NCBI GenBank assembly: GCA_049582005.1 | Contig: JBAUTB010000142.1 | Location: forward strand, 1 to 63,709 | DNA length: 63,709 bases | Direction of reading: 5' to 3' | Source of the DNA: Gloeobacterales cyanobacterium | GTDB taxonomy: Bacteria > Cyanobacteriota > Cyanobacteriia > Gloeobacterales > PMM-0068 | Shown here: positions 23,823-57,818 of the stretch, one piece after another | How positions within the stretch are numbered: the stretch's first letter is position 1 | How the letters are laid out: every line of letters begins with the position of its first letter | Made by a program: the position numbers and the translations under genes | Notes under the pieces: model-generated | What the model was told of the DNA's origin: nothing | What the model saw: the letters and a program-made list of their open reading frames with translations, nothing else | The model's database searches: none

Positions 23823-23892
23823 TTCCGCCCAAGTTCCCGAAAGTGTCAGATAATGCATGGCTGACCTTCCTTAACCAGTGTTGCCCTTTGCC

Positions 23893-24606
23893 ATGAGTCC
23901 TCAAAACACCGACAGTCCAGCGAATATAACCAGCGAGACGAACGATAAGAACGTAGTCCGAGAGTACTTCAACAGCATAGGTTTTGAGCGCTGGCAGAAA
24001 ATTTATGGGGATGGACCCGTCAATCGAGTGCAGCAATCTATCCGCACGGGCCACCAGCAAACCATAGATACCGTTCTTGAATGGTTGGGGGAAGATCTCA
24101 GGGGAGTTAGTATCTGTGACGCAGGCTGTGGTCTGGGGTCTTTGAGTTTGCCCTTAGCCGAGCGGGGTGCCCAAGTTTCTGGCTTTGATATCTCAGAGAA
24201 AATGATTGAAGAAGCCATCCAAATCAGGAATAAAACCTTCGTTAGCTCCCAGAATCCTCACTTTGAAGTCAGGGAAGTAGAAGCGATTGCCGGAAAATAT
24301 GACGTGGTGATTTGTCTCGATGTCTTGATTCACTATCCCCTGGAAGATGTAGAAAAAATGCTGGCCCATTTGAGTTCTTTGAGCCGTTCTCGCCTATTGC
24401 TAACTTTTGCTCCCAAAACTCCCTTTTTGACTATTTTGAAAAAGGTTGGTGGTTTCTTCCCTGGAGCCAGCAAAACAACCCGTGCTTACCAGCATCGCGA
24501 AAAAGACTTGTTGACGCTCTTACAAAAGTTGGGATGGACGTTGAGTAATAGAGCTGCTATCGATGATAAGTTCTACTTTGCACGGCTCTTTGAAGCCAAG
24601 CGATAG
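23893..24606 (+). CDS. chlM: Magnesium-protoporphyrin IX O-methyltransferase
   Basis: VREYFNSIGFERWQKIYGDG, DAGCGLGSLSLPLA, VICLDVLIHYP and SKTTRAYQH give a near-collinear match to my recollection of Synechocystis ChlM. Confidence 0.92.
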   Translation: MSPQNTDSPANITSETNDKNVVREYFNSIGFERWQKIYGDGPVNRVQQSIRTGHQQTIDTVLEWLGEDLRGVSICDAGCGLGSLSLPLAERGAQVSGFDISEKMIEEAIQIRNKTFVSSQNPHFEVREVEAIAGKYDVVICLDVLIHYPLEDVEKMLAHLSSLSRSRLLLTFAPKTPFLTILKKVGGFFPGASKTTRAYQHREKDLLTLLQKLGWTLSNRAAIDDKFYFARLFEAKR

Positions 24607-26550: not shown

Positions 26551-27480
26551 TTATTCAGTAACGCCCGAATCTCCTAACTGCTGCGATAAAACCTCAAACC
26601 CAGACACAATTTCAAGGATTTCTTCAGTAATCGAGGTTTGGCGCTGGTGCTGAAATTGGGTATTTAACTCGACTAAGCGGTTATTAATATTCTGCTCTGC
26701 TAATTGCATCGAGGTTAAGCGACTGAAAGTTTCGCTTGCCAGGGATTCGACGAGGGCACGGTAGAGTGAAATAAAGAGATACTGGCGAATGAGTGCCGAA
26801 AATAGGGGACGCCAATCCATGGTGAACATCGGTACTGTTTGAGACTGCCAAGCAAGAGTTTGAAACTGCTGAAGCCAAGTCAGGTCGATCGGCAAAAGGT
26901 GCAAGGTATGCGGAGTCACAGCCGCATTAGATTGGAGTTGGTTGTAGAGGAGGATGACCTGATCTAAACGCTGCTGCATTTGCCAGGATTCAATAAGCAA
27001 CAGTAATTCCTGCACGATGGGAGTAATCCCTGATAGTGAAGTCGGCATGGAAAAACTGGTTTCAACGGGGTATTCGGCTGTGGCGATCGCCGTCATCACC
27101 CGTGCGCCAACCACGACAATGACTGGAGTTTGATTAGAGAGTGGTTGCGTCTGGAATTGAGCGATCGCGTAACGACTGATCTGCTCATTAAACTGCCCGC
27201 ACATACCCTGGTCCGAACCAAAGATAATCACGCCAATTTGTTTACTCGATGCATGGATCGGGGAGGTGAGCGTTCGCAAATTTCCCTCGCCCGTTCTGGC
27301 GTATTCCCCTAAAAGCACTTGTAACCCCAAATCGATCGTGCGGCTGTATTCCGCCAGTGATTCAATCGCCCGTTCATATTGGCGAATACTGGCAGCTGAG
27401 AGCACTTTCATCGTTTTGACAACCGATTGAAGGTCTTGAATCGTTGAGATCTGGCGTTGAAGAAATTCCAGGGAAGGCAT
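26551..27480 (-). CDS. atpG: N-type ATPase gamma subunit
   Basis: Has the gamma-type N-terminus (I..I.DLQSVVKTMKVLSAA) and C-terminal helix (RQTSITEEILEIVSG). It is the last gene of the atpDCQRBEFAG operon. Confidence 0.85.
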   Translation of the reverse strand: MPSLEFLQRQISTIQDLQSVVKTMKVLSAASIRQYERAIESLAEYSRTIDLGLQVLLGEYARTGEGNLRTLTSPIHASSKQIGVIIFGSDQGMCGQFNEQISRYAIAQFQTQPLSNQTPVIVVVGARVMTAIATAEYPVETSFSMPTSLSGITPIVQELLLLIESWQMQQRLDQVILLYNQLQSNAAVTPHTLHLLPIDLTWLQQFQTLAWQSQTVPMFTMDWRPLFSALIRQYLFISLYRALVESLASETFSRLTSMQLAEQNINNRLVELNTQFQHQRQTSITEEILEIVSGFEVLSQQLGDSGVTE

Positions 27481-27486
27481 CAGGGG

Positions 27487-29037
27487 CTACCTTGTCGGCT
27501 GAAGGGTTTGGTGAGCAAGCTCTAGCAAAGCGGTGCGATTGATCGGACTTAAGGGTTCGCCGGATTGAACCTGTTTGCAGACCGCTGGCAACTGTTCATT
27601 TATTGCCTTACAAAGTGCTTGTTCGCCTGCCGCCATTTGCTCTATGGAGCAGTCATCAAACAAGCCCTCGGTTACTGCCAACAGCACGATAATCTGTTCT
27701 GCGACCGTCATCGGCTGATATTGGTTTTGCTTCAGGACTTCCCGGACGCGTCGTCCCCGTTCCAGGGTTTGTCTGGTGGATTCCTCCAGCCGCGTACCGA
27801 AGCGAGCAAAGGTTTCCAGTTCCTCAAATTGAGCGTAGGAGAGCCGTAGATCGCCAGCAACCGTGCGGTAGGCAGGCAGTTGCGTTTTGCCACCGACGCG
27901 AGACACGGATTTTCCAACATCGACAGCGGGTAATACTCCCTTTTGGAACAGTGTCGGTGAAAGATAGATTTGGCCATCGGTAATCGAAATCAAATTAGTC
28001 GGAATGTAAGCAGACATGTTCTGGGCTTCTGTTTCCATGATCGGCAATGCTGTGAGGGAGCCGCCCCCTCTGGCAGCGTTGAGATGGGTCGATCGCTCCA
28101 AGAGCCGAGCATGCACATAGAAAATATCACCGGGAAAGGCTTCTCGACCGGGAGGACGACGCAGCAGCAGGGACAACTCGCGATAGGCACGGGCATGGGC
28201 GGTAAGATCATCGTACACAATCAGCACATCATGTCCCTGCTCCATGAAGTACTCTGCCATGGTGGTTGCCGCATAGGGAGCAATAAACTGCAAACCCGGT
28301 GGTTCCTCGCCCCCTGCCACGACGATCAGGCAATAGTCCATGGCCTCATGGGATTGTAAATCCGCAATCAATTTAGCAATCGCCGAACTGCGCTGTCCGA
28401 TCGCACAGTAGACACAGAGAACGTCCTGTCCTTTCTGGTTGAGAATAGTATCCAGGGCGATGGCGCTTTTGCCGGTTTGGCGATCGCCCAGGATGAGTTC
28501 GCGTTGGCCCCGCCCGATCGGGATTAGGGCATCCACAACCTTCAGTCCGGTCTGAAGGGGTACGGTCACGGGTGATCGCTCCATAATGCCGGGAGCATTC
28601 CGTTCTGCCGGGCGGCGCTGCGATACCCGCACAGGACCTTTATCATCCAGGGGACGTCCCATCGGGTTGATCACCCGCCCCAACAGCGTTCTCCCAACGG
28701 GTACATCTAGCACCCGGCCAGTGCGCCTGACTTCAGAACCGGCACTCAGATGTTCGCTTTTGTCCAACAAAATGACACCGACTTCATCTGGATCCAGATT
28801 GAAGACCATCCCCAGACCATTGCCCACAAACCGCACCACTTCTTCTGCCTCAACGCCGGGTAAGCCAGACAAGCGAGCAATCCCTTGCCCCACAAACTGG
28901 ACAATGCCGATTTCCTGAGACTCTAGGGCGGGTTGGTAGTTTGCAAGGACGCGATCGAAGGTCGTGAAAGTTTTGTCCCGCAAGGTTTGAAGCGGTTGGT
29001 CATCCAGGTTCATAGCCAACTCCAGTCTCTTCTTCAA
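27487..29037 (-). CDS. atpA: N-type ATPase alpha subunit
   Basis: Contains GDRQTGKS (Walker A), LIVYDDLT and ITDGQIYL. The start is more likely the MNLDDQ Met at 29013. Confidence 0.9.
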
Positions 29038-29797
29038 ACACGGTAGCCAGACGTTCTTCGAAGCGATCCAGATAGTTCTCCACGCTCCAGGCTAATTTGC
29101 ATCCTGGTGCCCGTAACTCGATCCCACAGATCAGGTGAGGGTTGATTTCAAACTTTACGTTCAGGGGTTTAGCCTGTTGCAACTGCTGCTGCAAGGCTTG
29201 GGCGATCGCCTGTCGATCGGGTTCAGAAATCGTAAATGCACTATGGATCACCACTGGATGACGGGTGGAATTTTCAGGTCCGGCTAGACTATCAAGCGCC
29301 TGTTGCTCCGCTTCCGTCAGATGATGTAGCCGTTGTAAGAAAAGGGCAATTAGGCGACGTTCTAAATCCACATCTGCCAGGTCTGCCAAGACTCGTCGCA
29401 CGGTCGTCTGTACCTGCTGTATCGCCTGATGACGCAGTTCTCGCAAAAACGAGGCCTGTTGTTGTCGCACCACCAATTGCCAACGCCCTTGCATCGCATC
29501 CACGTCCTCCCGCACCGTTTGGATCTGGGCTAGCCGGAATTGTTCGACCTCTGCTTTTGTCTGGGCTAGCAGAGCCGCTTTTTGGGCTTCTAGATCCTGT
29601 TGCAGTTGGCGATAGTGTTGGGCTTCCTGTTGCGCCTCCTGCTCCTTTTGGGCAGCAGATTGCAGACGATTGCTGATCATTTCCTCCCGCTGATCCATCG
29701 CCCGGATGATCGGTTTGTACAACACCCGTTGTAATACAAAGACCAGGATCAAAAAGTTAATGATCTGAGCAACCAGCGTAAACCAATTGATTTCCAC
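29000..29797 (-). CDS. atpF: N-type ATPase b subunit with a delta/OSCP-like C-terminal extension
   Basis: An N-terminal TM helix ([17 protein letters not shown]) is followed by a long Gln/Ala coiled coil. About 100 extra aa end in [32 protein letters not shown], which resembles the C-terminal domain of delta subunits. The operon has no separate delta gene. Confidence 0.75.
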
Positions 29798-29801
29798 TGC
29801 C

Positions 29802-30080
29802 TTAAACTCCTGCTTTGCTGATCACGTAACTCCAGAAGGGATTGGCAAAGATCAAAATCAGGGCAATGAGAAAGCAGTAAATCGAAACCGATTCAATAAA
29901 GGCTAAACCGACAAACAGCGTGCGCGTAATGGTGTTGGCTTCATCGGGCTGCTGTGCGATGGCACTGAGTGCCTGGGCGATCGCGCGGCCTTCCCCAAGA
30001 GCGGGTCCAATGGACCCGATCGCCATCGTCAGTCCTGCCGTCAGGATAGAAATCATGCCCAACAGACTAATGCTATTCAT
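29802..30080 (-). CDS. atpE: N-type ATPase c subunit
   Basis: Forms a hairpin of two TM helices with the QQPD loop and IESVSIY in helix 2. I chose the ATG at 30080, 1 nt after the atpB stop, over the track start at 30164. Confidence 0.85.
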   Translation of the reverse strand: MNSISLLGMISILTAGLTMAIGSIGPALGEGRAIAQALSAIAQQPDEANTITRTLFVGLAFIESVSIYCFLIALILIFANPFWSYVISKAGV

Positions 30081-30081
30081 G

Positions 30082-30804
30082 CTACGTTTCCTCCAGAGAT
30101 GATTGAGTTTTAGCCGCATTGGACGGACGCTTATGTCCTGCTTCCACTTGACTGGCTGAAGCAATGTAGACCATGGCTAGGATGGCAAAGATATACGCCT
30201 GGATAAGTCCGATCAACAATCCCAAAGCTTTCATCACAATCGGGAAAAATAGGGGGGCAATGGATAATAAAATGGCGGCAATCATCCCTTCACTCATCAC
30301 ATTGCCAAATAGCCGGACTGCCAGAGCCAGGGTGCGGGAGAGTTCTCCAATCACATGGAAGGGCAACATGATTGGGCTGGGGTCGAGGTAGTGCTTCAAA
30401 TAGCCCAGCAACCCTTGCTGCCAAATCCCGTAGAAGGGCACGGCAAAAAACACACAAATTGCCAGAGCAGCCGTTGTTGATAGGGATCCGGTGGGGGGAT
30501 AATACTCCGGCACGATCGCCAGCACATTGGCAGTGGCAATGAAAATAAATAGCGTCCCGACAAACGGCAGGTAGGGCAGAGGATCTTGGCCGCTGGTTTG
30601 CTGGATTTGATCGCGCACATTGAACACCAGCACTTCCAAGAGATTCTGCCAGCGAGACAGATAAATACCGGTGGAAAGGTTGCGGGTGATCAGCCAAGCA
30701 CCGATGCCCAGCAGCACTATGATGCCCCAGGTATAGACCAGAGTGGCATTGAGAACGATCATCCCCGATCGCCAGAAAATGATGGTGTCCGGACTGATCT
30801 GCAT
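30082..30804 (-). CDS. atpB: N-type ATPase a subunit
   Basis: A polytopic protein with the conserved stator arginine region (LALAVRLFGNVMSEGMI). Confidence 0.85.
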   Translation of the reverse strand: MQISPDTIIFWRSGMIVLNATLVYTWGIIVLLGIGAWLITRNLSTGIYLSRWQNLLEVLVFNVRDQIQQTSGQDPLPYLPFVGTLFIFIATANVLAIVPEYYPPTGSLSTTAALAICVFFAVPFYGIWQQGLLGYLKHYLDPSPIMLPFHVIGELSRTLALAVRLFGNVMSEGMIAAILLSIAPLFFPIVMKALGLLIGLIQAYIFAILAMVYIASASQVEAGHKRPSNAAKTQSSLEET

Positions 30805-30811
30805 AGTGTTC

Positions 30812-31108
30812 TTACCCTACTTTGACGCCTAACCGTTGCACCATCCGGTTGCGTGTCCAGAAAAAGGCAGCAACGCAGCCCAACAGCGGCAATGGGCTGG
30901 GCTGGAGCATGCCCAATAGGAGGGAAAATGCCGCCAGACAAAACCCCAACCGGAGGATGAGACTGATGATCGATAGCTGAATTGTATGGCGAGTCGTCGG
31001 TAAGCGCCGTACTGTCAACCAGAGCCCACCAAAGTAAAGGACGCCCAGGATGAGGCCCCAACCTACCCCTGCCACAATCGCCACGGGCAAAAACAACCCA
31101 TTATTCAT
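30812..31108 (-). CDS. atpR: N-ATPase accessory membrane protein AtpR
   Basis: A small protein of about 98 aa with three hydrophobic helices and Arg residues adjacent to or within them (GGLWLTVRRL, LILRLG). It occupies the atpR position between atpQ and atpB. Start at 31108 overlaps the atpQ stop. Confidence 0.65.
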   Translation of the reverse strand: MNNGLFLPVAIVAGVGWGLILGVLYFGGLWLTVRRLPTTRHTIQLSIISLILRLGFCLAAFSLLLGMLQPSPLPLLGCVAAFFWTRNRMVQRLGVKVG

Positions 31109-31472
31109 CGTGCTGATTTTCCTGCTTGCTTTGTACGGGAGGCTCTGAAGATTGCTCCATCGCCTGCTGCTCTCGGGCAACCCAGTTCCAGGCATTCAGA
31201 CAGCCCAGCATTAATCCGGCAACCATGAGCATCAAGGTCCAGGAAAGGTGGCTGGGAAACTGTCCATCGATCCAGACCCCGATTGCCAGACCTAACAGCG
31301 TCGGAACCACGATCGACCAGCCCACCAAACCGAGCAATCCCAACCCAAACCAGAGGGTCTGATCTTTCTGGCGTCTAGCCCTGAGTTTGCTTTGCTCCCG
31401 GTTCGTGATGCGTTGCATAAAGTGATCACGCGATGTCTGTTGATTGTGCTCGGAGGATGTAACTTTTCCCAT
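31101..31472 (-). CDS. atpQ: N-ATPase accessory membrane protein AtpQ (AtpI/AtpZ-like)
   Basis: Has a basic N-terminus and two TM helices (LWFGLGLLGLVGWSIVVPTLLGLAIGVWID). It sits between atpC and atpR. Confidence 0.65.
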   Translation of the reverse strand: MGKVTSSEHNQQTSRDHFMQRITNREQSKLRARRQKDQTLWFGLGLLGLVGWSIVVPTLLGLAIGVWIDGQFPSHLSWTLMLMVAGLMLGCLNAWNWVAREQQAMEQSSEPPVQSKQENQHDE

Positions 31473-31478
31473 CGTTCC

Positions 31479-31862
31479 CTAACCCCCTAATTCAACAAAT
31501 TGGCGCACCAGATTCGCTTCTAGCTTGGCGAGAACCGATCGCATTTTGGTTTCCCGTTCATCCAAAACTTGGAACTCCTGCTCAATCGTCTGTTTCAGCA
31601 TGCCTAAATCTCCGCCCAGCACAGCTTGAGAGGTAGAAACGAGGACTTCCATCCCACATTTGACCAAAATACCGGAATCTACTGCCAGGAAATGCTCTTG
31701 TCCATTCATTGCCACAAAAGCCAACAATCCGGGCACCAGGGCGGTTACATAATCAATATGGTGCGGCAAAAGGCAAAAGCAACCGTTCTCTGCTTCTGCT
31801 GTAACTTTCGTGACTTCTATCTCCAGCAGAATTTTGGTGGGTAGGATGATTTTAAGTTTCAT
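31479..31862 (-). CDS. atpC: N-type ATPase epsilon subunit
   Basis: 127 aa. The N-terminus is beta-sandwich-like (LKIILPTKILLEIEVTKVTAEAENGCFCLLPHH) and the C-terminus is helical. Confidence 0.8.
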   Translation of the reverse strand: MKLKIILPTKILLEIEVTKVTAEAENGCFCLLPHHIDYVTALVPGLLAFVAMNGQEHFLAVDSGILVKCGMEVLVSTSQAVLGGDLGMLKQTIEQEFQVLDERETKMRSVLAKLEANLVRQFVELGG

Positions 31863-31956
31863 AACGCTCGCCGCTGGGCTATGGCATCACTATGCGACAG
31901 CTTGCAGGAAGTTACCATCCTTGTTCGCACTTCTTGAGGTTTGAATCGGGAAATCC

Positions 31957-34219
<2,263 letters not shown>

Positions 34220-34299: not shown

Positions 34300-35808
34300 C
34301 TAGAACTTCTGGAGTGCTTCTTCTCCCCGACGGTGAATCTCCCGTGCGTAGTCGGTCCAAGTCCCCTGTCCCCAATAGCGAAAGCAACTGGTTTGGGTGA
34401 GGAGATTGTATAGCAGAGCTTCGCGATAGCGGGTTTGGCGCGTGAGCGGTTCTCCAGAAGATTGATTAGTCTCTGCGGTCATCAAGGGGTCTATCTTCTG
34501 GTGGAACATCGCACTCAGTTGATTCATCGGGCCCAACACGTTCTCATAGCCTTTGACCCAACTTAAGTCGTTGGTCCAAGAAGCACCATCCATATGGAAG
34601 TTGTGATGGGTTTTCTTCACTGCTTCGATAGCTTCGGCTACTTTCTCAGGGGTTGCAGATTCTGGAGAAACCCGCTCCCAGATAAGATGTTGCCCCACTG
34701 GCTGACACACAGGATAGTCCTCAGGCTTACAGCCTGCCGCTTCAATCAGCTCTAGATATTCGGTCCCATTCAGACCGACCACGCCTGATGTGCCGCCATT
34801 ATGGTGGGACATGTCATACCAAGCATTCTTGAATCCATCCGGGAATTCATTCATCATCACGCCCCCATTCTCACCATCCCCAATCTGGGTCACGATGGGA
34901 GGGATAGAAATACCGGAAATCTGCTGCCGAGAAAGGGTTTTGGCTTCGTAGTAGGGCTGCATCTGAGCCACCAACTTGGTGTCTGAGCCTTGGGTTTTAA
35001 TCAACGCTGTGATGCTAATGGTCTCGCCGTGGGAATTGCGTGCCAGCAGGCGATGGGGAAGATGCCTGTTATGCAGGCTATGCCCTTCTAAGGTCTCTAT
35101 GGAATGCTCTTGGACCATGAGCCAGCGATAGCCACATTCTTTCAGGGCTTTGATGTACTCATAGAGGGTATCGGGATGATTCGGTAGATGCATTTCTGGA
35201 GGAGAAAATCCCTTCACCCGAGCCAAAGCTTCCCAGCCAAAGACACTGGCGAAGTAGTGTTGCCATGCCTGGATATGTAGCTTCAGGTCAGGGATGGGCG
35301 TGGAAGGCGCAACAGCATGACTCCACATCGTTCCTAACCATTCCACATAGGGCTGATAGCTGGGGTCACAGGTAACACGCTTCAGGTTGTCAAGGACATC
35401 TCCGCGTCCCATTTGTCGGAGTCCCCAGAGGAGGTTTCCCGAATAATCCAACATCACACGCGGGTTACAACCCTGGGCGACGAGTTCAGGGATAAAGTCT
35501 GCAATACGGCTATAGCACCAAGCAAAAACCCCCGCATTGTGGTTATCTCCATCGTGGGGATTCTCAAACATATGTTGCAGGTTGCTTATCAAAGCCCCCT
35601 GATGTCCGGCAGGGATAGTGGGCTGGTGCATATGCAACGCAACGGCAAAAGCAGCCGTAACATTTTCTAGACGAATATTCGTTCTGGGTAAAAACACAGG
35701 CTGGTCTTGTTGCACAACAGACTGGACCTCCGCTTCCCATCCTGAAATATTGGGTAAACCATCGATAATTTCCGAGAGAACGGGTAAGCGTGTGGGAGCA
35801 GAAACCAT
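34300..35808 (-). CDS. Glycoside hydrolase family 57 protein
   Basis: The GH57 region-1 signature ALHMHQP is near the N-terminus, and the protein is about 500 aa. Met at 35808 (MVSAPTR) chosen. Confidence 0.75.
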   Translation of the reverse strand: MVSAPTRLPVLSEIIDGLPNISGWEAEVQSVVQQDQPVFLPRTNIRLENVTAAFAVALHMHQPTIPAGHQGALISNLQHMFENPHDGDNHNAGVFAWCYSRIADFIPELVAQGCNPRVMLDYSGNLLWGLRQMGRGDVLDNLKRVTCDPSYQPYVEWLGTMWSHAVAPSTPIPDLKLHIQAWQHYFASVFGWEALARVKGFSPPEMHLPNHPDTLYEYIKALKECGYRWLMVQEHSIETLEGHSLHNRHLPHRLLARNSHGETISITALIKTQGSDTKLVAQMQPYYEAKTLSRQQISGISIPPIVTQIGDGENGGVMMNEFPDGFKNAWYDMSHHNGGTSGVVGLNGTEYLELIEAAGCKPEDYPVCQPVGQHLIWERVSPESATPEKVAEAIEAVKKTHHNFHMDGASWTNDLSWVKGYENVLGPMNQLSAMFHQKIDPLMTAETNQSSGEPLTRQTRYREALLYNLLTQTSCFRYWGQGTWTDYAREIHRRGEEALQKF

Positions 35809-36121
35809 AGGAATGAGTCCTTTAACAATACAGAGGAAGATCAACCCAATACTACCTAAAAGCTCGCCCTTTCCTTCTCTGGGCTAGCATTTCTGCATCA
35901 GGCCAATAGTTATAAGTGTAGGGATCTAGCCCGCTACAATTTCTAGCCTTAAGGAATAGTCAAGGATTCAAACTATCTACGCGCAAAGGAACTAATTTGC
36001 CCTCGGTTGTGCGCCCAAGCAGCATATTCTGCTGGGCTTGAATTCCTTAGCCAGCAATGGCACAGTGCTCTTCTCATTGCGCTACGGCAGCGATGCTCAC
36101 CCGAAGATCCGCTAAGCCAAC

Positions 36122-36837: not shown

Positions 36838-37836
36838 TTAGCTGACTCGACAGAGCAAAAGACCAAACCAATGATTCGGGTCTGTCCAGGTCTGTATAGG
36901 AACCAATCCCTTAGCCGCGAGATTTTCCTGGATATTTTTCATGTTAAATTTTCGAGAAATCTCCGTTAGGATAGTTTCCCCTGCCTCAAAAGTTACCTTC
37001 AGATCTAAGGCACCAAGATGAACGACTTGATCAACTAAACTCTCTAAATGCATTTCAATTTGCTGCAAAAATTCATTATAAAAAGCCACATGTTTGAACT
37101 GCGTGAGATCAAAATCTCCTCCAAATTTCCGGTTGAGATGACGGAGTACGTTCAGGTTAAAAGCTGCCGTAACCTCCTGACTATCGTTATAGGCAGCTTC
37201 CACGATCGCTTTGGGTTTTTGCAGGTCTACGCCAAGTAAGAAATATGCACCTGTATCCAAGGCATCTCCCATTTGGGTAAAGAATTGGTCGCATTCCTCA
37301 GAATTGAGATTTCCCAGGGTACTGCCCAAAAAACAGAGCATTCGGGTAGGCAAGGGCGAAGGTGCCAATTTCTCTAATGCCAGATCGAAGGTGCTTACGA
37401 CCCCATGCACCTTTAGCGTTGGATAGGACCTAAGTAGCTGCAAAGCACTCTCTTCAAGGATGCCTGCACTCACATCAATCGGTAAATAGTGCAGTGGATA
37501 GCCCAGCGCGCCATAGGCATCAAGCAAAATACGGGTCTTGGTTGAGCTGCCACTCCCCAACTCAACTAATTCACAAGGGCCTGTCAGCTTGGCAATCCCA
37601 GCAGCATTCTGCTGCAAAATGGAAGCTTCTGTACGGGTCGGATAGTACTCGGGAAGGCTACATATTTGCTCAAACAACTCCGAACCTCGGTCATCATAAA
37701 AGTAGCGTGGTGGAAGCGTTTTGGGTACTTGACTCAAGCCTTTTACCACATCTTCATCCCTTTCAAAGAGAGAGGAGGGCCCAGATTGAAGCAGTTGCTC
37801 CAGATACAAACGCTCGTATAACTCTTTCTGAAGCAT
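36838..37836 (-). CDS. egtD: EgtD-like L-histidine N-alpha-methyltransferase (DUF2260 family)
   Basis: PRYFYDDRGSELFEQICSLPEYYPTRTE, VELGSGSSTKTRILLDA, YLPIDVS and FLGSTLGN are the collinear EgtD-family blocks. Confidence 0.8.
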   Translation of the reverse strand: MLQKELYERLYLEQLLQSGPSSLFERDEDVVKGLSQVPKTLPPRYFYDDRGSELFEQICSLPEYYPTRTEASILQQNAAGIAKLTGPCELVELGSGSSTKTRILLDAYGALGYPLHYLPIDVSAGILEESALQLLRSYPTLKVHGVVSTFDLALEKLAPSPLPTRMLCFLGSTLGNLNSEECDQFFTQMGDALDTGAYFLLGVDLQKPKAIVEAAYNDSQEVTAAFNLNVLRHLNRKFGGDFDLTQFKHVAFYNEFLQQIEMHLESLVDQVVHLGALDLKVTFEAGETILTEISRKFNMKNIQENLAAKGLVPIQTWTDPNHWFGLLLCRVS

Positions 37837-38150: not shown

Positions 38151-38798
38151 TTGAAGAGGTTGCGAGTGCCTAGAATAGTCGCTATCGTCAATGGCAAAGG
38201 TGGGGTTGGAAAAACAACGACATCTGTAAACCTAGCTGCGACCCTTGCACAAAAGATAAAAGTTTTGTTAGTGGATGCAGACCCCCAAGCTTCAGCCGCT
38301 TGGTGGGCGGAGCGAAGCGAAAATGGCATTGGTTTTGATCTGATCAGGGAAACCGATCCAGAACGCCTCGGTGATTTACGTAATACAAAGGGCTATGAAT
38401 TGGTGATGGTGGACACCCCTCCTGCTTTACGTTCTGAAGCATTAGCAGCGATAGTCTCTTCTGCTGATTATTTAGTTTTGCCTACTCCACCAGCCCCCAT
38501 GGATCTAACGGTGCTGATTGAGACCGTTCGCGAGGCTGTCAGACCTATAGGGGTTGCGCATCGGGTACTGCTGACACGGGTGGATACCCGTAGTTTGAAA
38601 GAGGCCCTGGAAGCCCAAAAGACTCTAATGGATGTGGGTATTCCTACCTGTAATGCCTTTGTCCGCGCCTACAAAGCTCATGAACGAGCAGCACTGGAAG
38701 GCGTATCGATTACAAACTGGCGAGGAAAAAATGCCCAAGAAGCTGAGGCAGATTATCGTCGGGTGGCCGATGAACTTCAACGAGACTGGGGGAACTAA
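38151..38798 (+). CDS. ParA/MinD-family deviant Walker A ATPase (McdA-like)
   Basis: IVAIVNGKGGVGKTTTSVNLA (KGGxxGKT) and VMVDTPP (Walker B-like) are present. The protein is short, about 210 aa, with no N-terminal DNA-binding domain. The GTG at 38166, preceded by GAAGAGG, is an alternative start. Confidence 0.85.
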   Translation: MKRLRVPRIVAIVNGKGGVGKTTTSVNLAATLAQKIKVLLVDADPQASAAWWAERSENGIGFDLIRETDPERLGDLRNTKGYELVMVDTPPALRSEALAAIVSSADYLVLPTPPAPMDLTVLIETVREAVRPIGVAHRVLLTRVDTRSLKEALEAQKTLMDVGIPTCNAFVRAYKAHERAALEGVSITNWRGKNAQEAEADYRRVADELQRDWGN

Positions 38799-39643
38799 TG
38801 GCTAAAAAACGTTTAGCAGACCTGCTCAGGCAAGAGGCTGAAAAATCTCCAGAAGTCAGCTCTCCCATCCCCGATGAACCAGACCTTCCACAACCGTCTA
38901 TGGAAGCAGAGGAGAAAACACCTATGACCACACCCACACCCCCCAAACGCACAACCCTAACAAAAGCTGATCTAGAAGCAAAGGTGACCGAATTGCAAAC
39001 AGAAATTGATAGTCAGAAAGCGCAGATAGAGCAGCTCCAAGCTTCTCCCTCCCAAATCGGTCAGCCCCAGACCGAAGAGCAGACAGAAAAAGAACTTCTG
39101 CTCCAACAACAGGTAGCTGATTTACAGGCAGAAGTAGGACACCAGAAAGCCCACATCCAACAGCTCCAGACTTATCTAGACCAGACGAGCCAGCTCAAAA
39201 CCGAACTGGAGCGTGTCAAAGAAGAGTTGGAAACGTTTAAGCAACAAAAAACTATTTTGCCCAAGGTCTTTCATCGCCCCACCAACGAAGAGCTGCACGC
39301 CCTTGCCCAAGCTAAAGCAGAGCGTGAAACCGTGAAAAAGCCACTCCTTCCTAAAGCTAGGATCTACCATCGCCCTACCGACGAGGAACTAAAAGCTTTT
39401 GCCCAGGCTAAAGCAGAGGGTGAAGCCGTGAATAAGCCAATCCTTCCTAAAGCCAGGGTCTTTCACAGTCCCACCGACGAAGAAATGGAAGCCATGGCCC
39501 AGGCTAAAACAGAGGGTGAAGCCGTGAAAAAGCCAATTCTTCCTAAAGCTAGAGTCTTTCACAGTCCCACCGAGGAAGAAATGGAAGCCATGGCCTCAAG
39601 CTCCAGAGCGACTTCTGACCAGGATATTGGCTGGTTTGATTAG
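38798..39643 (+). CDS. ParA partner protein: basic N-terminus, Gln-rich coiled coil, 32-aa tandem repeats, C-terminal Trp (McdB-like)
   Basis: The start overlaps the ParA stop (TAATG). The N-terminus is MAKKRLADLLRQ. A Gln-rich heptad region (QKAQIEQLQ...LLLQQQVADLQAEVGHQKAHIQQLQ) is followed by about 3.6 copies of PILPKARVFHSPTDEEMEAMAQAKTEGEAVKK. The protein ends in DIGWFD. Confidence 0.55.
   Translation: MAKKRLADLLRQEAEKSPEVSSPIPDEPDLPQPSMEAEEKTPMTTPTPPKRTTLTKADLEAKVTELQTEIDSQKAQIEQLQASPSQIGQPQTEEQTEKELLLQQQVADLQAEVGHQKAHIQQLQTYLDQTSQLKTELERVKEELETFKQQKTILPKVFHRPTNEELHALAQAKAERETVKKPLLPKARIYHRPTDEELKAFAQAKAEGEAVNKPILPKARVFHSPTDEEMEAMAQAKTEGEAVKKPILPKARVFHSPTEEEMEAMASSSRATSDQDIGWFD
39251..39595 (+). 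repeat. In-frame tandem repeat, period 96 bp (first copy 90 bp), about 3.6 copies
   Basis: Unit starts fall at about 39251, 39341, 39437 and 39533 (CCAMTYCTTCCTAAAGCYAGR...). Spacing is exactly 96 nt between the last three. Confidence 0.85.
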
Positions 39644-40464
39644 GAGAGGTGTAAAGACTGGACGAATGGCTGAAACTTTGGAACGAGATCGGCCCGACTG
39701 GCAACTAGGGTTGGATAGTCTTTGTGTCCGTAGTCTACGCCTGCCAGCAGCGGAAACAGGGGTTTGGATTCTAGGGGAACCCAGACTGCCCCGGCAGCTT
39801 GGACAATTACCCATGCCCCAGCAATATCCCAAATCTTAGGGGTGGCCTCTACTCCGCCTAGCGTAGCTCCCATGGCCACCATCAGGAAGTTATAGGCCGC
39901 ACTGCCCAAGAGCCGAGCCTTACAAGGGAAACCAGGTCGCCACACATGGAGACTACGGGCACAAAAACTAAAAAAGTGATTGGCTGTGATTTCATCGGGA
40001 CTGGCATGAATAACTTGGTTGTTGAGAAAGGCGACTTGCGGACAGTCTCCTGGGGCCTGCCAAAAGCCATGAAAAGCTTGGCCCAAGGGGGGCATATAGA
40101 CATAGCCGAAGACAGGGGTGCCCTGATAGAGCAAACCAAGGGAAATACCCCAAATTGGAATTCCTCGGGTAAAGTTGGTTGTGCCATCCAAAGGGTCAAT
40201 CACCCAGCACCAGTCTTTGTCGGGGAAAACCTGTTCATTTTCTTCGGTCAATAAACCGTGGTCAGGAAAAGCAGCGTTAATTTGCTCTCGGAGATAACGG
40301 TCTGCCCATTGGTCCGACTGAGTAACCAGGCTACCATCGGCCTTTTGGGAAGCTTGAACCTTACCAAAATCAGCCAAAAGTTGCTGTCCTGCCTGCCGGG
40401 TGATGGCGAGGGAACAGGCTAGAATCTGCGGCCAGAACTCTTCCGTTTTATCAGGTGCCATCAT
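39640..40464 (-). CDS. Inositol monophosphatase family protein
   Basis: Contains LTEENE and WVIDPLDGTTNF metal-binding motifs. It is convergent with the partner gene above and overlaps it by 4 nt. Confidence 0.85.
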   Translation of the reverse strand: MMAPDKTEEFWPQILACSLAITRQAGQQLLADFGKVQASQKADGSLVTQSDQWADRYLREQINAAFPDHGLLTEENEQVFPDKDWCWVIDPLDGTTNFTRGIPIWGISLGLLYQGTPVFGYVYMPPLGQAFHGFWQAPGDCPQVAFLNNQVIHASPDEITANHFFSFCARSLHVWRPGFPCKARLLGSAAYNFLMVAMGATLGGVEATPKIWDIAGAWVIVQAAGAVWVPLESKPLFPLLAGVDYGHKDYPTLVASRADLVPKFQPFVQSLHLS

Positions 40465-52059: not shown

Positions 52060-53487
52060 CTAATCTCGCCAGGTTTCATCTAAAACAGTCCCCTCCGCAC
52101 CCACTAATTGGACATGCAAGGGCATTTGACCTGCGGCATGGGTCGAACAACTGAGGCAGGGATCAAAGGCACGAATTCCTGCTTCAACCCGATTTAGCAT
52201 ACCTTCAGGAATTTCAGGACCGTGGATGTAATGTTGGGCAATTTGGGTCACCGTTCGATTCATCGCCAGATTATTTTGTCCTGTAGCAATCAGCAGGTCT
52301 ATCTTTTTCATCAGGCCGTTTTCATCTACGTGATAGTGATGAAATAGCGTGCCACGGGGAGCTTCACTCACCCCAATCCCTTCTAACTGATTAATGCCTG
52401 CATGGGCACGGAGATGGCTAGAGAGAATATCGGGTTCATTCAGGAGTTGAGCTATCCATTCAATCGAACCCAATATTTCAATGAGCCGGGCGTAGTGATA
52501 GAAAAAGGATGAGAGGACGACGGTACCTTTCCCTCGGTCACGGAACTCTTTTAACTCCTGGTCTGCCAGAGGCCCACCGATATGGGTACAAATATTCAAA
52601 CGGGCGAGAGGACCGACTCGATACATCCCTGCTGGATAGCCAAGGGGTTTGTAGTAGGGAAACTTCAGATAGGACCAGGGTTCGACCGCTTCTCCCAGGA
52701 TTTCTTCAAAGCGGGTTGGGTCGAGACCATCCACCAGGATATTTCCTGCATTATCTACAACGCGGAGGTAGCCGTCATAGTTCTCCCAGGCTCCGTCGGC
52801 AGTGACCAAGCCCATAAACAGGCTGGCGAAGTTCCCGAAGACTTCTGTTTCTTGTTGGTAATCATCCAGTAAATTTTTGAATCGGTCGATCGCCTTCAGC
52901 ACGGTGGCTTGGACTTCAGGAATGCGGTCATGAATATGGGCACGGCCCTCTTCTGATAAGGGTTCTCGCACGCCTCCTGGCACGGCCCAAGAGGGGTGAA
53001 TCTTGCGACCGCCTAGAATCTCGATAATCTCTTGACCAAACTGGCGTAAACGAATGCCTCCCCTGGCCAGTTCTGGTTCTGCGGCAATCAGTCCAAATAC
53101 ATTGCGAGAGGCCGGATCGCTATCCATACCCAAAAGGAAGTCTGGGGCGCTGAGGTGAAAGAAGCTGAGGGCATGGGATTGGATAATTTGGGCCAGATTC
53201 ATAATCCGCCGCAGTTTGGTTGCCGTCGGTGGAATCGTAACCGATAAAATCTGATCTCCCGCTTTAGCGGAAGCCAGTAAATGGCTAATCGGGCAAATAC
53301 CGCAGATACGAGACGTAATGCCTGGCATTTCCCAAAGCGGACGGCCCTCACAGAACTTTTCAAATCCTCGGAACTCCGTCACATGAAAACGGGCGTCCGC
53401 TACCGCTCCATCCTCATCGAGATGGATGGTGATTTTGGCATGCCCCTCAATGCGGGTGACGGGATCAATAACAATGCGCTGAGACAT
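52060..53487 (-). CDS. hoxH: Bidirectional [NiFe] hydrogenase large subunit
   Basis: Has N-terminal RICGICP and C-terminal DPCLSCSTH Ni-Fe ligand motifs. A post-His extension suits HoxW processing. Confidence 0.93.
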
Positions 53488-53506
53488 AAGCGGTCAACCT
53501 CTCCCC

Positions 53507-54049
53507 TTAGCCAAATCTAATCTCTTTTCCCTCTAAGTGAGGTTCTTCCTCTTTAATCAAGGACTCTAGTACTGCTCGGATCCGAGAGGCAGGAGGTGGA
53601 CAACCCGGCAGGTAGAAGTCCACAGGTACGACTTGATGAACAGGGAGAACTCGGTCCAATAATAGCGGGACGATCCCAGGCTCCTTAGGAATCTGGCGCT
53701 GGATGGCTGCAGCCTCAACATAACAGCGCTGGAGCACCGGTTCTGCACTACCGAAGGGATTCCGTAGGGCCGTGACATTTCCCGTAACGGCACAGTCACC
53801 AAATGAGACCAGGATCTTTGAGCGCTTTCTAACGGTTTGGATGAGGTGGAGGTTATCTTCGTTGGCAATCGCACCTTCCACTAACACCACATCCACGTTT
53901 TCTGGATATTCTTTAACATCGGCAAAAGGACTATAGACTAAATCCACCTGGGCTGCCAAATCAAACAGCCATTCGTCCAGGTCGAGAAAGGACATGTGGC
54001 AGCCAGAACAGCCTCCCAGCCAAACGGTTGCCAGTTTTAAACGAGCCAT
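53507..54049 (-). CDS. hoxY: Bidirectional [NiFe] hydrogenase small subunit
   Basis: [13 protein letters not shown] and LPGCPP are cluster ligands. The protein is the short 180-aa HoxY type. Confidence 0.9.
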
Positions 54050-54753
54050 TGTTTTTTCTTCCTTGCCGTTGCAATAAATTCGATGCGGGAGCGGTTGTGG
54101 ACCATTTCGCCCACACTAGATCCCTGGTGAAAAATAGACCCGGTGGGACAAGCTTCTACACATTTGCCGCAGGAAGTACAGCTTTGGGAAGTGCCCCAGG
54201 GCTGATTCAGGTCCGTAATCACATGGGAGTGGTTGCCTCGACCCGCCATATCCCAGGTATGCGCTCCTTCGAGTTCGTCACAGACCCGTATGCAGCGTGT
54301 GCAGAGAATACAGCGGTTATGGTCTATGCCGAAGAGGTTATGGGAAAGGTCCACCGTCCGGCTTGGATTGAGGTATTCGAACTCCACATGGTCCATCCCC
54401 ACCCTGACAGCCATGTTCTGTAGTTCGCAGTGACCGTTGGAAACACAGACCGAACAAACGTGATTGCCCTCGGCAAAAAACATTTCGGTAATCATCCGCC
54501 GATACTGCTGTAGGCGTTCTGTATTCGTACGAACTTCCATACCCTCCATCGCCTTGGTGACACAGGCCGCCTGCAGTTTGTTACTGCCTGCAACTTCCAC
54601 CAAGCAGAGGCGACAGGCCCCCACCGCTGAGACTCCATCGAGATAACACAGCGTGGGAATGTTAATCCCGGCATCTTGTGCCGCTTCTAGCAAGGTCTCA
54701 TCCTCACGGGCACTGATCATTTGGTCATCAATCGTTAGGGTTTTGACTGCCAT
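54037..54753 (-). CDS. hoxU: Diaphorase subunit HoxU (NuoG N-terminal-like Fe-S protein)
   Basis: Has a 2Fe-2S motif (CRLCLVE...C), an HxxxC..C cluster, [11 protein letters not shown] and [12 protein letters not shown]. Confidence 0.9.
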
Positions 54754-54761
54754 ATCGTTTC

Positions 54762-55244
54762 CTATGGAGGAGGTGGAATAATTTCAAGACCGTATTGCGG
54801 GGCTTCGGCCATGATTTTTTCGATATCTTCGGGACTGACGATCGGTGGAGAAGGGTGATTCGCTAAGGGCTTACCGACTTCCATAAAAAACTTCTCCAGC
54901 CCTGCGGGTGTCACCCAAATCAGCATTTTGCCTAGGGTTGATCCCCTATTGGTAAAGCGATGCAATTGGCCCTTTGGAGAATGGAGAAACGTACCAGGGG
55001 TGGCTACCACTACTTGTTCGCCCAGCTGAAATTCAAACTCCCCCTCTTGGACATAAAAAGCTTCATCTTCCCGTCCGTGGATATGGGGTGGAGGTCCATT
55101 CTGAGGTTGAATTTGGACTTCGACAAGGGCATAGGCTTGCCCGGTTTCCTCGCCTACGGCCTTAATGGTATACAAGTCGCCAAGTACCCAGTAGGACGAG
55201 CCTTGGCCTGGTTGCATCAAAATGGCCTGTGGATCGATAGTCAT
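54762..55244 (-). CDS. Cupin domain protein embedded in the hox operon
   Basis: The cupin motifs [18 protein letters not shown] and HRFTN are present. It ends 8 nt before the hoxU start. Confidence 0.7.
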
Positions 55245-55332
55245 TGTGAATTCCCCACCCTGAAAAGCAAGGGGGTGCTACTTAAAGCTAGAGGTACTTT
55301 TCTGCGTCTGGGGATCTTAAAGCTCATGGTTT

Positions 55333-57003
55333 TTATTGCCTCATCGCGTTAGGGTCTTGAATCAGGGCCAGGTATTCATTGCGGAAATAGCGTAGCGTGC
55401 TCAGGACAGGATTTGGCGCAGACTGGCCTAGCCCACAGAGGCTTGTTTCTTTCACCATCGGGCAGAGCGATTCCAACTGTTCTAAGTCCGCAGGGGAGGC
55501 CCTACCTTCATGGATTTTGGTCAAAAGCCGATACATCAGCACCGTGCCCGCGCGACAGGGAATACATTTGCCGCAGGATTCATCCATGCAGAATTCCATG
55601 AAGTAGCGGGCGACTTCCACCATGTTGTTGCTCTGGTCCATGACAATCATGCCGCCGGAACCCATAATCGAGCCCAGCTGGATCAGGGACTCATAGTCAA
55701 CGGGGGTATCCAGGGCATCCGCTGGAATACAGCCTCCAGAAGGCCCACCCGTCTGAACCGCTTTAACGGAACCGTCTGCTGGTGCTCCTCCGCCCATTTC
55801 TTCCACAATTTGCTGGAGGGTGGTGCCCATAGGTACTTCGACCAGACCTGTGTTACGGACGTTGCCGGTGAGCGAGAAGACCTTTGTGCCCTTGCTTTTC
55901 TCGGTACCGATACTGGCAAACCAGTCGGCTCCGCGACGGAGAATGGTCGGGACATTGGCGTAGGTTTCGACGTTATTAATCAGGGTTGGAGCTCCCCAGA
56001 GGCCCGATTCTGCTGGATAGGGGGGGCGGGGGCTCGGTATGCCCCGTTTACCTTCGATGGAAGCCATCAATGCCGTTTCTTCCCCGCAAACAAAAGCGCC
56101 TGCACCTATTCTGAGATCAATCCGAAAGTCAAAGGGGGACTCAAAAATCTGACTGCCCAAAAGACCTAGTCGTTTCGCCTGCCGAATGGCCGTTTCTAAA
56201 CGACTAATCGCCAAGGGATATTCAGCACGGACGTAGATATAACCTTGGTTCGCTCCCACGGCGTAGGCCGCAATCGCCATTCCCTCTAGCACGCGATGGG
56301 GGTCACTCTCCAGAATACTACGGTCCATGAATGCACCGGGGTCGCCCTCGTCGGCATTGCAGATGACGAATTTCTGGGAGCGACCCCCTGCTCCCATTGA
56401 CTTTGCCACGGTTGCCCATTTCAGCCCGGTTGGATAACCGGCTCCACCCCGTCCCCGAAGACCACTGCGGGTGATACTATTTACCACCTCAGAGGGCGTC
56501 ATTTCTTGCAAAACACGCTGGAGCGACTGATAGCCAGTGGCGGCGATATAGGATTCGATGCGCTCAGGGTCAATCTTGCCGCAATTTTCCAGCACAATCG
56601 ATAGCTGACGGGTAAAAAATGGATGGGTCAGGTCGCCCTGTTGGGCCGTGGCAGTCTCTCCTTTTAGGGAGGCCACAATGGAAGGGGCCTCATGAGGGGT
56701 GACCTTTTCGTAGAGTTGGGTCATCAGTTCGCACTGTAGGGGGGTAGGCCCTTCCGTCGCTAACCGTTCCCCAGCTCCATCAATCTGAACCAGGGGACCC
56801 TGACAGCACAAACGCATGCAGCCTACTCCTACGACCTGCACGCTATCTTGTAATCCCGCTTCTGTAACGGCTTGCTCCAGGCGCTGTTTGACGGCCAGGG
56901 AATTGGAAGACAGACAACCTGCGGCGGTACAACAGCGAATATGGATGCTCTTTTGAGCCTGACGTTCTTGTTCAGCAAGGGCCAAAAGTTCACTGATGTC
57001 CAT
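55333..57003 (-). CDS. hoxF: Diaphorase subunit HoxF (NuoF-like, NAD(P)H/FMN-binding)
   Basis: Contains [13 protein letters not shown] (FMN), ADEGDPGAF and [10 protein letters not shown] (4Fe-4S). The N-terminus is thioredoxin-like. I chose the MDISELL Met at 57003. Confidence 0.92.
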
Positions 57004-57502
57004 CTTCAAGCCACCCTTGTACAAAATGAATAGCCGATTCTGGCGTTTGGTAGCCTGACACTGCACCGTCAAAAACGACCACAGGAGCTAGGCTACAAGC
57101 GCCCAAGCAACGGGCGGTCAAAAGGGAAAGCTTCCCATCGGCTGTGGTTTCTCCTCCCTGGATGTGCGTTTGCTGCTCGAGGGCGGCTAGTACGGAAGCA
57201 GCCCCTTTGACATAGCAAGCCGTTCCCAGACAGACCACACACTGATGAAGCCCTTTTGGCGTAAGGGAGAAGAGATGATAGAAGGTAGCGACGCCATAAA
57301 CACGGCTAGGAGGCAGTTTCAAGCTATGGGCAATGTAGCGTAATAGGTCATCAGGCAAACAGCCAAAGAGTTCCTGGGCTTTGTGCAGTACTTCAATCAG
57401 GGCATCTTGCTGATACTGATAGCGCTTGATCGTGGCATCGAGTATTTTGTATCGCTTATCAGGGATCCTTATAGATTTTTTGTCGAGGATAGGAGCCTGC
57501 AT
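56990..57502 (-). CDS. hoxE: Diaphorase subunit HoxE (NuoE-like 2Fe-2S)
   Basis: Shows the CVCLGTAC...C..C pattern ([23 protein letters not shown]). Confidence 0.9.
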
Positions 57503-57610: not shown

Positions 57611-57818
57611 CTGGGGGGTGAGGTTCTTGTTTCCTCTCGATTCTGACCATAGCCAAAATTAAATGGCGAATTGATTCACAAAAATTTAGCTCATAAAGAG
57701 CTAAGAAATATTCCAAATGTTTCATCTTGAGAACCATTTAGCTAGATATAGAGGGTGAAGTGACGTGCCCAAAACGTACAACAAACGAAATAACAACTCT
57801 TACAAGAGGTACCCTGAC

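Follow-up and report, generated by a model that had tools for sequence, protein, structure and literature searches.

Which cargo, if any, is handled by the gene pair at positions 38151 to 39643 of contig JBAUTB010000142.1 (assembly GCA_049582005.1), a 63,709-nucleotide (nt) stretch from a Gloeobacterales cyanobacterium? The first gene encodes a ParA-type ATPase and the second a Gln-rich protein that ends close to a Trp residue. An initial annotation of the whole stretch, hereafter the window, had read the two as a candidate McdA/McdB-like pair with Type 2 hallmarks, that is, an ATPase and the adaptor that links it to carboxysomes. That reading stands, given the identity of the ATPase to a published McdA and the profile match of the partner to proteins encoded beside shell genes. 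We consider it likely that the pair is a chromosomal Type 2 beta-McdAB in a genome related to Candidatus Sivonenia alaskensis. The argument starts from what the analysis shows directly: the structure of the genes, their family membership, as judged from sequence and from synteny in relatives, and selective constraint.

The ATPase and its overlap with the partner gene

The mcdA gene (38166..38798, +) encodes 210 amino acids (aa) from a GTG codon at 38166 to a TAA stop at 38796-38798, within a longer open reading frame (ORF; 38151..38798, +) that would begin with TTG and yield 215 aa. Hundreds of mcdA orthologs are known, nearly all of them 210 aa long with N-termini reading VPRI or MPKI, and a GAGG (38156-38159) precedes the GTG; for these reasons GTG 38166, rather than TTG 38151, is probably the true start. 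The product contains the Pfam domains CbiA and AAA_31 and aligns without gaps to a 210-aa ortholog, showing neither an N- nor a C-terminal extension. Its deviant Walker A motif, KGGVGKTTT (38196..38222, +), bears the signature Lys and two extra Thr residues and is contained in GKGGVGKTTT (38193-38222). The KGGVGKT portion (38196-38216) is the sole deviant Walker A motif within the window. The ParA ATPase of about 210 aa with an intact KGGVGKT and no extension, as first described, is borne out by the reading frame, the motif and the gapless alignment.

In the literature, Type 2 McdA is defined by five features: the protein is 210-228 aa long, it has the signature Lys, Walker A is followed by two additional Thr, a WW doublet stands by Walker A' together with a short insertion, and the mid-protein extension of Type 1 is absent (MacCready, Basalla & Vecchiarelli 2020, PMC7182216). 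The stated length applies to carboxysome-linked members, the overall range being 202-253 aa (PMC7182216). All five are present in the window McdA (GKGGVGKTTT; AAWWAERSENGIGFD). The doublet, W46-W47, follows Walker A' at 38301..38306 (+) in the context DADPQASAAWWAERSENGIGFD, and the combination of WW with a short F/E/P insertion, free of the Type 1 extension, is seen in DADPQASAAWWAERSENGIGFDLIRETDPE. The closest published comparison is AKG24853.1 (our database match P0091), with 74% identity over 208 residues and no gaps; this protein, from Calothrix sp. 336/3, is named a Type 2 McdA in PMC7182216.

About 1,800 database proteins match the window McdA at E < 1e-20. The best 120 share 72-97% identity with it, and every one of these that carries an organism name is cyanobacterial; no Gloeobacter protein is among the McdA matches listed. 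In a neighbor-joining (NJ) tree, drawn without bootstrap values, the window McdA lies within the clade of chromosomal cyanobacterial orthologs, and the ratio of nonsynonymous to synonymous substitution rates (dN/dS) against close relatives is 0.03-0.06, indicating purifying selection. The McdA-like structures 6NON, 6NOO and 6NOP in the PDB match it around the P-loop only. On these comparisons, the window ATPase is a Type 2 McdA ortholog.

The stop codon of mcdA and the start codon of the 281-aa partner overlap in TAATG (38796..38800, +), and a GGGGGA sits approximately 6 nt 5' of the partner ATG. This arrangement, already read as translational coupling in the initial annotation, is consistent with coupling of mcdA and mcdB, and the same one-base overlap recurs in about half of 80 orthologous loci described below.

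The partner, its family and its plasmid counterparts

Reading frame, family layout and profile comparison by hhalign identify the downstream gene, mcdB (38798..39643, +), as encoding a Type 2 McdB adaptor of 281 aa. Its first 16 residues (38798..38845, +), MAKKRLADLLRQEAEK, make up a basic amphipathic helix: AlphaFold2 (AF2) models residues 2-15 as helical, the hydrophobic moment of the N-terminal helix is 0.52, and the peptide is 100% identical in the close relatives L002 and L008 and kept across the McdB family. Positive charges come before negative ones, which is the published order for Type 2 McdB. By analogy, we infer that this peptide binds McdA and stimulates its ATPase. A disordered linker rich in Pro, Glu and Thr (10, 5 and 5 of 36 residues, respectively) follows at residues 17-52 (38846..38953, +); residues 17-51 have AF2 confidence values (predicted local distance difference test, pLDDT) below 50, and the dN/dS of 0.7-1.4 is close to neutral.

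The central coiled coil, residues 53-157 (38954..39268, +), was delimited by AF2, Gln content and heptad pattern. Gln accounts for 21% of residues 53-152. AF2 predicts helices at 56-82 and 93-157, the latter with pLDDT > 90, on either side of a Pro-containing break at approximately residues 83-92. Hydrophobic residues occupy 75% of heptad a/d positions in residues 56-82 (22% overall) and 56% in residues 93-157 (28% overall). The segment holds the family motifs TKADLE, LQQQVADLQ and QLKTELE and has a dN/dS of 0.23-0.37. At the far end of the protein, the acidic tail SSSRATSDQDIGWFD (39596..39640, +) contains the only Trp of McdB, W279 of 281 (codon 39632-39634), within ...SDQDIGWFD and close to D274, D276 and D281; by analogy with other McdBs, this tail would be a carboxysome-shell binding motif. 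As a whole the protein is strongly polar, with a grand average of hydropathy (GRAVY) of -0.90, and 81 of its residues have pLDDT < 50. Both mcdA and mcdB are under purifying selection. The basic N-terminal peptide, the Pro/Glu/Thr-rich stretch, the Gln-rich heptad region and the Trp three residues from the C-terminus (DIGWFD) had all been noted at the outset, and each is recovered here.

Relatives of this partner are few, with three found by word-indexed search and 36 by exhaustive phmmer comparison against 1.8 billion representatives, a scarcity that fits the published mean similarity of approximately 20% among McdBs (PMC7182216). These 36 share an N-terminus of the form M-x-KK-x-L-x-DLLR-EE, the motif PTKA(D/E)LE, the coiled-coil motif LQQQ(I/V)ADLQ, and QLKxELExAKK, and their tails are of two types, DIGW(F/V)D and N(S/T)WLL(D). 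A Trp lies 3-4 residues before the C-terminus in 31 of the 36, as the sole Trp in all but one of these 31, and the five left over are fragments or spurious matches. An independent view comes from 185,579 reference genomes scanned with McdA, from which the best 80 loci were kept. At 78 of the 80, the ORF whose start coincides with or directly follows the McdA stop carries a Trp as its third- or fourth-last residue, and most of these 78 fit a regular expression for the basic N-peptide, the rest carrying a close variant. The N-peptide and near-terminal Trp recur in both sets and are not attributable to chance.

Thirty-five of the 80 loci, mostly from Nostocales, have two genes encoding bacterial microcompartment (BMC) domains within 10 kb, located 1.5-7 kb downstream, and Pfam confirmed the pair in Fischerella PCC 9431 and Nostoc punctiforme NIES-2108. 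These genes are presumably ccmK3 and ccmK4, whose linkage to mcdAB has been reported in approximately 25% of genomes (PMC7182216); what our own tests detect is the BMC domain alone. When a profile of partners from the window clade (A3) was compared by hhalign with a profile of 14 BMC-linked partners (A2), taken from loci whose BMC gene pairs Pfam or a hidden Markov model confirms, residues 1-154 of the window protein aligned at 99.5% probability with an E-value of 4e-23. The score is possibly inflated by coiled-coil composition, but the N-peptide and the PTKADLE motif anchor the alignment.

The 80 loci also differ in their C-terminal ends. About 12, from Chroococcales, Leptolyngbya-like cyanobacteria, Elainellales, Aliterella and the window clade, have a tail of the class (D/N)xGW(F/V)D, and the remaining loci, comprising all Nostocales and several Oscillatoriales, have (M/T/S/A)W(L/M)(L/Y)(D). 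Linkage to a BMC-shell pair is seen only in the latter class.

The published Type 2 McdB features that a sequence can reveal are all found in the window partner, proximity to ccm genes (a supportive, non-defining trait) aside. Judged by sequence, the pair very probably belongs to the Type 2 beta-McdAB family. Compared with described members, such as Calothrix AKG24853.1 with its downstream McdB and GKIL_0670/0671 of G. kilaueensis (PMC7182216), the window pair has the same gene order, overlap and chromosomal location, and its McdA agrees with theirs in size, signature Lys, TTT and WW. Its McdB follows the same layout of basic N-peptide, disorder, Gln-rich coiled coil, polar extension and Trp in the last four residues. 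It differs in a longer C-terminal extension made of a 32-aa repeat found in its own clade only, in a tail of the DIGWFD class rather than the MWLLD of Nostocales, and in the absence of ccmK3/ccmK4 linkage.

The experimentally characterised Type 1 beta-McdAB of Synechococcus elongatus PCC 7942 likewise consists of a ParA-type ATPase and a polar coiled-coil adaptor with a charged N-terminus and an invariant C-terminal Trp, and both types presumably work as a Brownian ratchet on the nucleoid. Type 1 McdA, however, lacks the signature Lys and contains a mid-protein extension, and in Type 1 McdB the coiled coil is C-terminal and the order of N-terminal charges is reversed, none of which is true of the window proteins. 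The alpha-McdAB of Halothiobacillus neapolitanus and other proteobacteria also pairs a signature-Lys ParA-type ATPase with an adaptor bearing a C-terminal Trp motif (PMC11321042), whereas alpha-McdBs, unlike the window partner, are monomeric proteins with approximately 95% disorder, no coiled coil and a terminal R(V/I)WPD.

Certain plasmid proteins also resemble the window ATPase and raise the question of whether the pair instead serves DNA partition, as a type Ib-like ParA and its centromere-binding adaptor or as what is left of an integrated plasmid or phage. ParA proteins encoded on Thermus plasmids of 19-25 kb share approximately 71% identity with the ATPase, and one from a Nostoc plasmid shares 62%; the ATPase also matches the PHROG ParA-like family phrog_164, and NCBIfam ParA_partition below that model's cutoff. 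The Thermus and Nostoc plasmid ParAs carry KGG..KTTT and WW, showing that the Type 2 McdA signatures are not exclusive to carboxysome systems. They nevertheless fall outside the chromosomal clade in the NJ tree. Their adaptors (ParA/adaptor loci: Thermus thermophilus plasmid NZ_AP025598.1, L088 2998-3980; Nostoc sp. NIES-3756 pNOS3756_2, L089 2998-4669) are encoded directly downstream, as in the window, and open with a similar basic peptide, (K/R)(K/R)RL(A/S)(E/D)LV(R/Q)EE, the only region in which weak similarity to the window partner is found. Beyond it the plasmid adaptors share an end module of approximately 55 aa, ..RLRxDQxDALTxLxRxLNR..GERxTxNTLIRxAVDLLL.., which the window partner lacks, and they have neither the coiled coil nor the terminal Trp. 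To the eye this module is ribbon-helix-helix (RHH)-like, a visual impression unconfirmed by any Pfam or PDB match.

The partner and its surroundings speak against DNA partition. Pfam and NCBIfam contain no ParB, helix-turn-helix (HTH) or RHH family that matches the window partner, in keeping with the lack of ParB/HTH features claimed at first, and yield only sub-threshold coiled-coil matches. Candidate hits to Sas-6_C_CC, KIF21A, ASRP and phrog_2380 in Pfam, NCBIfam and PHROGs were likewise below threshold and were dismissed as composition effects. When 72,556 plasmids and 50,697 phage records were compared with the partner by tblastn, neither collection gave a match. Iterons and parS-like repeats are absent from the vicinity, the only repeat above chance being an in-frame coding array, and the locus is embedded among core chromosomal genes (EF-G, EF-Tu, DnaX, ChlM, GlgA) with synteny kept in relatives. 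The initial annotation had set out beforehand what should count against an McdAB pair, namely ParB or centromere-binding homology, or an integrated plasmid or phage cassette with parS-like repeats; neither was encountered on this core chromosome. The DNA-partition reading is largely refuted, and we give it hardly any weight.

On the evidence of the adaptors compared here, it is the partner and not the ATPase that identifies the cargo, and the window partner is of the McdB type. Type 2 McdABs and the plasmid ParA/adaptor pairs may have one ATPase and one activating N-terminal peptide in common and differ by exchange of the cargo-binding C-terminal module alone, and the sequences possibly reflect cross-phylum transfer between cyanobacteria and Thermus. 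In PMC7182216 a similar plasmid link is described for Type 1 only.

The repeat block of McdB

Between the coiled coil and the Trp tail of the window McdB lie four tandem repeats of approximately 32 aa (residues 154-266; 39257..39595, +), delineated by Tandem Repeats Finder (TRF), by listing of units, by AF2 and by dN/dS. The units begin at residues 154, 184, 216 and 248 and measure 30, 32 and 32 aa, the last being partial, in agreement with the four 30-32-aa repeats reported originally. At the DNA level TRF finds a 96-nt tandem array at 39276-39595 with 3.3 copies, 84% matches and a score of 374. The core of the repeat reads LPK-x-[RK]-[IV]-[FY]-H-[RS]-P-T-x-E-E-[ML]-x-A-[LMF], and AF2 models each unit as one short helix separated from the next by a low-confidence linker. 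Four copies are present in the window, L006 and L007, and three in L002, L008 (PMM_0068) and P0001. The motif is absent from 33 of 33 more distant database relatives and from 79 of 79 other genome loci; by this distribution the 32-aa repeat is restricted to a Candidatus Sivonenia-like clade of Gloeobacterales. A Pfam search of the isolated repeat region returns nothing significant.

A metagenomic protein of 906 aa from an AT-rich organism, P0129, matches the repeat region (phmmer E = 2e-7) and was rejected as a relative, as it has no McdB features. Its residues ~200-620 comprise about 12 tandem repeats of approximately 31 aa, LPxxVFYNxCSEERLEYLLEKANGE, which resemble the McdB repeat in period and at several positions, and Pfam gives a partial match to the C-terminal part of PFO_beta_C (E = 2.4e-13) that is presumably repeat-driven. 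The match is probably a chance resemblance amplified by repetition.

The repeat block does not by itself set this McdB apart. The window protein has 140 residues after the conserved Lys141, as against 89 +/- 20 in 78 other partners, of which the longest has 153, and unrelated repeats with units of 10 aa (Scytonema), 31 aa (Chlorogloeopsis) and 41 aa (Nostoc) occur in other partners. Published McdBs span 132-394 aa and often bear lineage-specific repeats (PMC7182216). The 'unusual architecture' of the initial annotation was therefore an overstatement, given that other McdBs have repeats of their own and C-terminal parts just as long, and by these comparisons the window McdB falls within the known variability of the family.

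How such a block is maintained can be judged from its substitution pattern. One account treats it as a neutral, expandable spacer, generated by replication slippage in a disordered tail and having no function of its own. Copy number does vary between three and four among close relatives, unrelated repeats lie in the same region of other McdBs (a common occurrence according to PMC7182216), and AF2 confidence over the repeats is low (pLDDT 41-79). The dN/dS of the repeats, however, is 0.25-0.36, near that of the coiled coil and far below the 0.7-1.4 of the linker, an approximate value inasmuch as it derives from within-repeat alignment and may be affected by concerted evolution. In addition, the core (R/K)(I/V)(F/Y)H(R/S)PTxEE(M/L)xA(L/M) is kept across copies and orthologs at an overall dS of up to 0.59. 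Measured in this way, the repeats are under purifying selection and do not drift freely. We regard the neutral spacer as a real possibility that falls short of being probable.

The three or four repeats would represent a lineage-specific expansion of the C-terminal extension between coiled coil and Trp tail. Their most likely effect would be to make this segment longer and to supply weak multivalent contacts through basic and aromatic residues and an acidic helix. A bolder proposal, which we put forward as tentative and rather doubtful, is that the repeat is no spacer and serves as a functional valency module of variable copy number, with a short helix after the core. Were this true, each unit would weakly contact the carboxysome shell, another McdB or McdA, and strains with three and four copies would differ in McdB loading, condensation or carboxysome spacing. 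The idea that the repeat helices are encapsulation peptides was rejected, as their hydrophobic moment is just 0.02-0.26 and they are not amphipathic.

Cargo, genomic neighbourhood and host lineage

By analogy with homologous systems, on which both the identity of the cargo and all biochemical steps are modelled, the pair probably positions carboxysomes. ATP-bound McdA dimers would coat the nucleoid through non-specific binding, and McdB would dimerise or oligomerise via its Gln-rich coiled coil, with the acidic C-terminal tail and its Trp attaching it to the carboxysome shell. Stimulation of the McdA ATPase by the basic helix at the N-terminus of McdB would then clear McdA from the nucleoid around each carboxysome, and the resulting McdA gradients would pull carboxysomes apart in the manner of a Brownian ratchet, leading to even spacing and to inheritance by both daughter cells. 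The invariant Trp is needed for carboxysome association in Type 1 beta- and alpha-McdBs (PMC11321042). Type 2 McdAB is listed for Gloeobacter species, and the McdB of G. kilaueensis loads onto carboxysomes of S. elongatus (PMC7182216). Binding to shell proteins, condensate formation and stimulation of McdA have been demonstrated for other McdBs (PMC7182216, PMC11321042).

Several points weigh against this assignment. The ATPase alone does not specify its cargo, in that its signatures, at approximately 71% identity, are also found in the Thermus plasmid ParAs. The repeats and tail, which form the C-terminal third of McdB, are left unaligned with the BMC-linked Nostocales partners, whose ends read MWLLD and not DIGWFD. 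The AF2 model of McdB was built from an alignment of 4 sequences only and has a mean pLDDT of 66.9 and a predicted TM-score (pTM) of 0.26. Close relatives have no BMC genes within 10 kb of the pair, and with no carboxysome gene nearby the link to carboxysome cargo is indirect. The function of Type 2 was itself termed 'speculative' in the paper that defined it (PMC7182216), and we found no experiment on any Type 2 beta-McdAB in its native host in the searchable literature.

Some of these points would suit a ParA-type system for another cargo, such as a protein body, a storage granule or an envelope complex recognised by the Trp tail and repeats: ccm and BMC genes missing both from the window and from around the pair in close relatives, no native-host test of Type 2 that we could find, and a cargo-facing third of McdB that is lineage-specific. 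ParA-type ATPases are, moreover, described in passages of PMC7182216 as serving plasmids, conjugation, cell division, motility and microcompartments. The window partner nevertheless shows clear homology to proteins whose genes lie beside BMC-shell gene pairs, and it retains the Trp-acidic tail that is the carboxysome-binding element in tested McdBs (PMC11321042). The neighbouring genes are unrelated metabolic genes that hint at no alternative cargo. A cargo other than carboxysomes is, in our estimate, improbable.

The distance to ccm genes needs to be seen in the same light. The 63.7-kb window contains no BMC or ccm gene, the best match to a BMC hidden Markov model having E = 0.38, with the same outcome from Pfam searches of 45 window ORFs, the pair itself among them. 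The first reading was right on this fact and went too far in concluding that the cargo is therefore open: published mcdAB pairs lie near carboxysome genes in only about 31% of genomes (PMC7182216), so a missing ccm linkage is normal for the Type 2 family.

Among the genes of the window are those for EF-G, EF-Tu, DnaX, ChlM, MnmA, GlgA, Adk, Map, PFK, Hox hydrogenase subunits and pyruvate:ferredoxin oxidoreductase (PFOR), a gene content that marks the window as core chromosome. L002, L006 and L007, the close relatives whose contigs extend far enough for downstream synteny to be counted, all keep mcdA, mcdB, inositol-phosphatase-family gene, CMAS-type methyltransferase and desaturase in this order. 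The TAG stop of mcdB (39641-39643) shares a 4-nt overlap with the end of the convergent inositol-monophosphatase-family ORF (39640-40464, -), leaving no space for an intergenic terminator. A promoter and terminator scan gave counts at or below shuffled expectation and no terminator-like site above chance by the end of mcdB, and Rfam identifies no RNA family in the whole window.

Upstream of mcdA lies a gene for an EgtD-like histidine-specific methyltransferase (Methyltransf_33, E = 2e-118; 36838-37836, -), also found in L006. In L002 and L004 the same slot is taken by other genes, a 134-aa ORF and acetyl-CoA synthetase; upstream synteny is unstable, in contrast to the stable downstream order. 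Farther away, an ATP synthase cluster of a second type occupies 26551-33423 (-), with the order beta ... a ... b(/delta-like) - alpha - gamma on one strand, which we take to resemble that of N-ATPase operons. Two ORFs just upstream of this cluster, 33377-34219 (280 aa) and 34300-35844 (514 aa), have no Pfam family. Hox-type NiFe hydrogenase subunits at 52060-57072 adjoin a pyruvate:ferredoxin/flavodoxin oxidoreductase at 57765-61445.

The nearest reference genome is the metagenome-assembled genome PMM_0068 (L008), whose McdA is 97% identical to that of the window. PMM_0068 was described by Pessi et al. 2023 (PMC10438808) as Candidatus Sivonenia alaskensis, from a genus of Gloeobacterales that is uncultured and probably lacks thylakoids. 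ChlM of the window (23878-24606) is 86-91% identical to proteins of uncultured relatives and approximately 64% identical to that of the best-matching named species, Gloeobacter morelensis, values that fit a poorly sampled, deep-branching lineage.

The Type 2 McdAB family is already known, and the sole unusual feature of the window pair is the clade-specific repeat block of its McdB. What the pair adds is an uncultured genus, the second in the earliest-branching order of cyanobacteria, in which Type 2 McdAB occurs with the published hallmarks, an occurrence that fits the published view of Type 2 as the ancestral carboxysome-positioning system. The pair, which public records now label 'ParA family protein' or 'chromosome partitioning protein' and 'hypothetical protein', can confidently be given a new name. 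That the adaptors of close plasmid relatives of Type 2 McdA share just the N-terminal peptide points to modular exchange of the cargo-binding end. The natural series of three- and four-copy McdBs in this clade, finally, offers a ready test of valency and segment length in McdB function.

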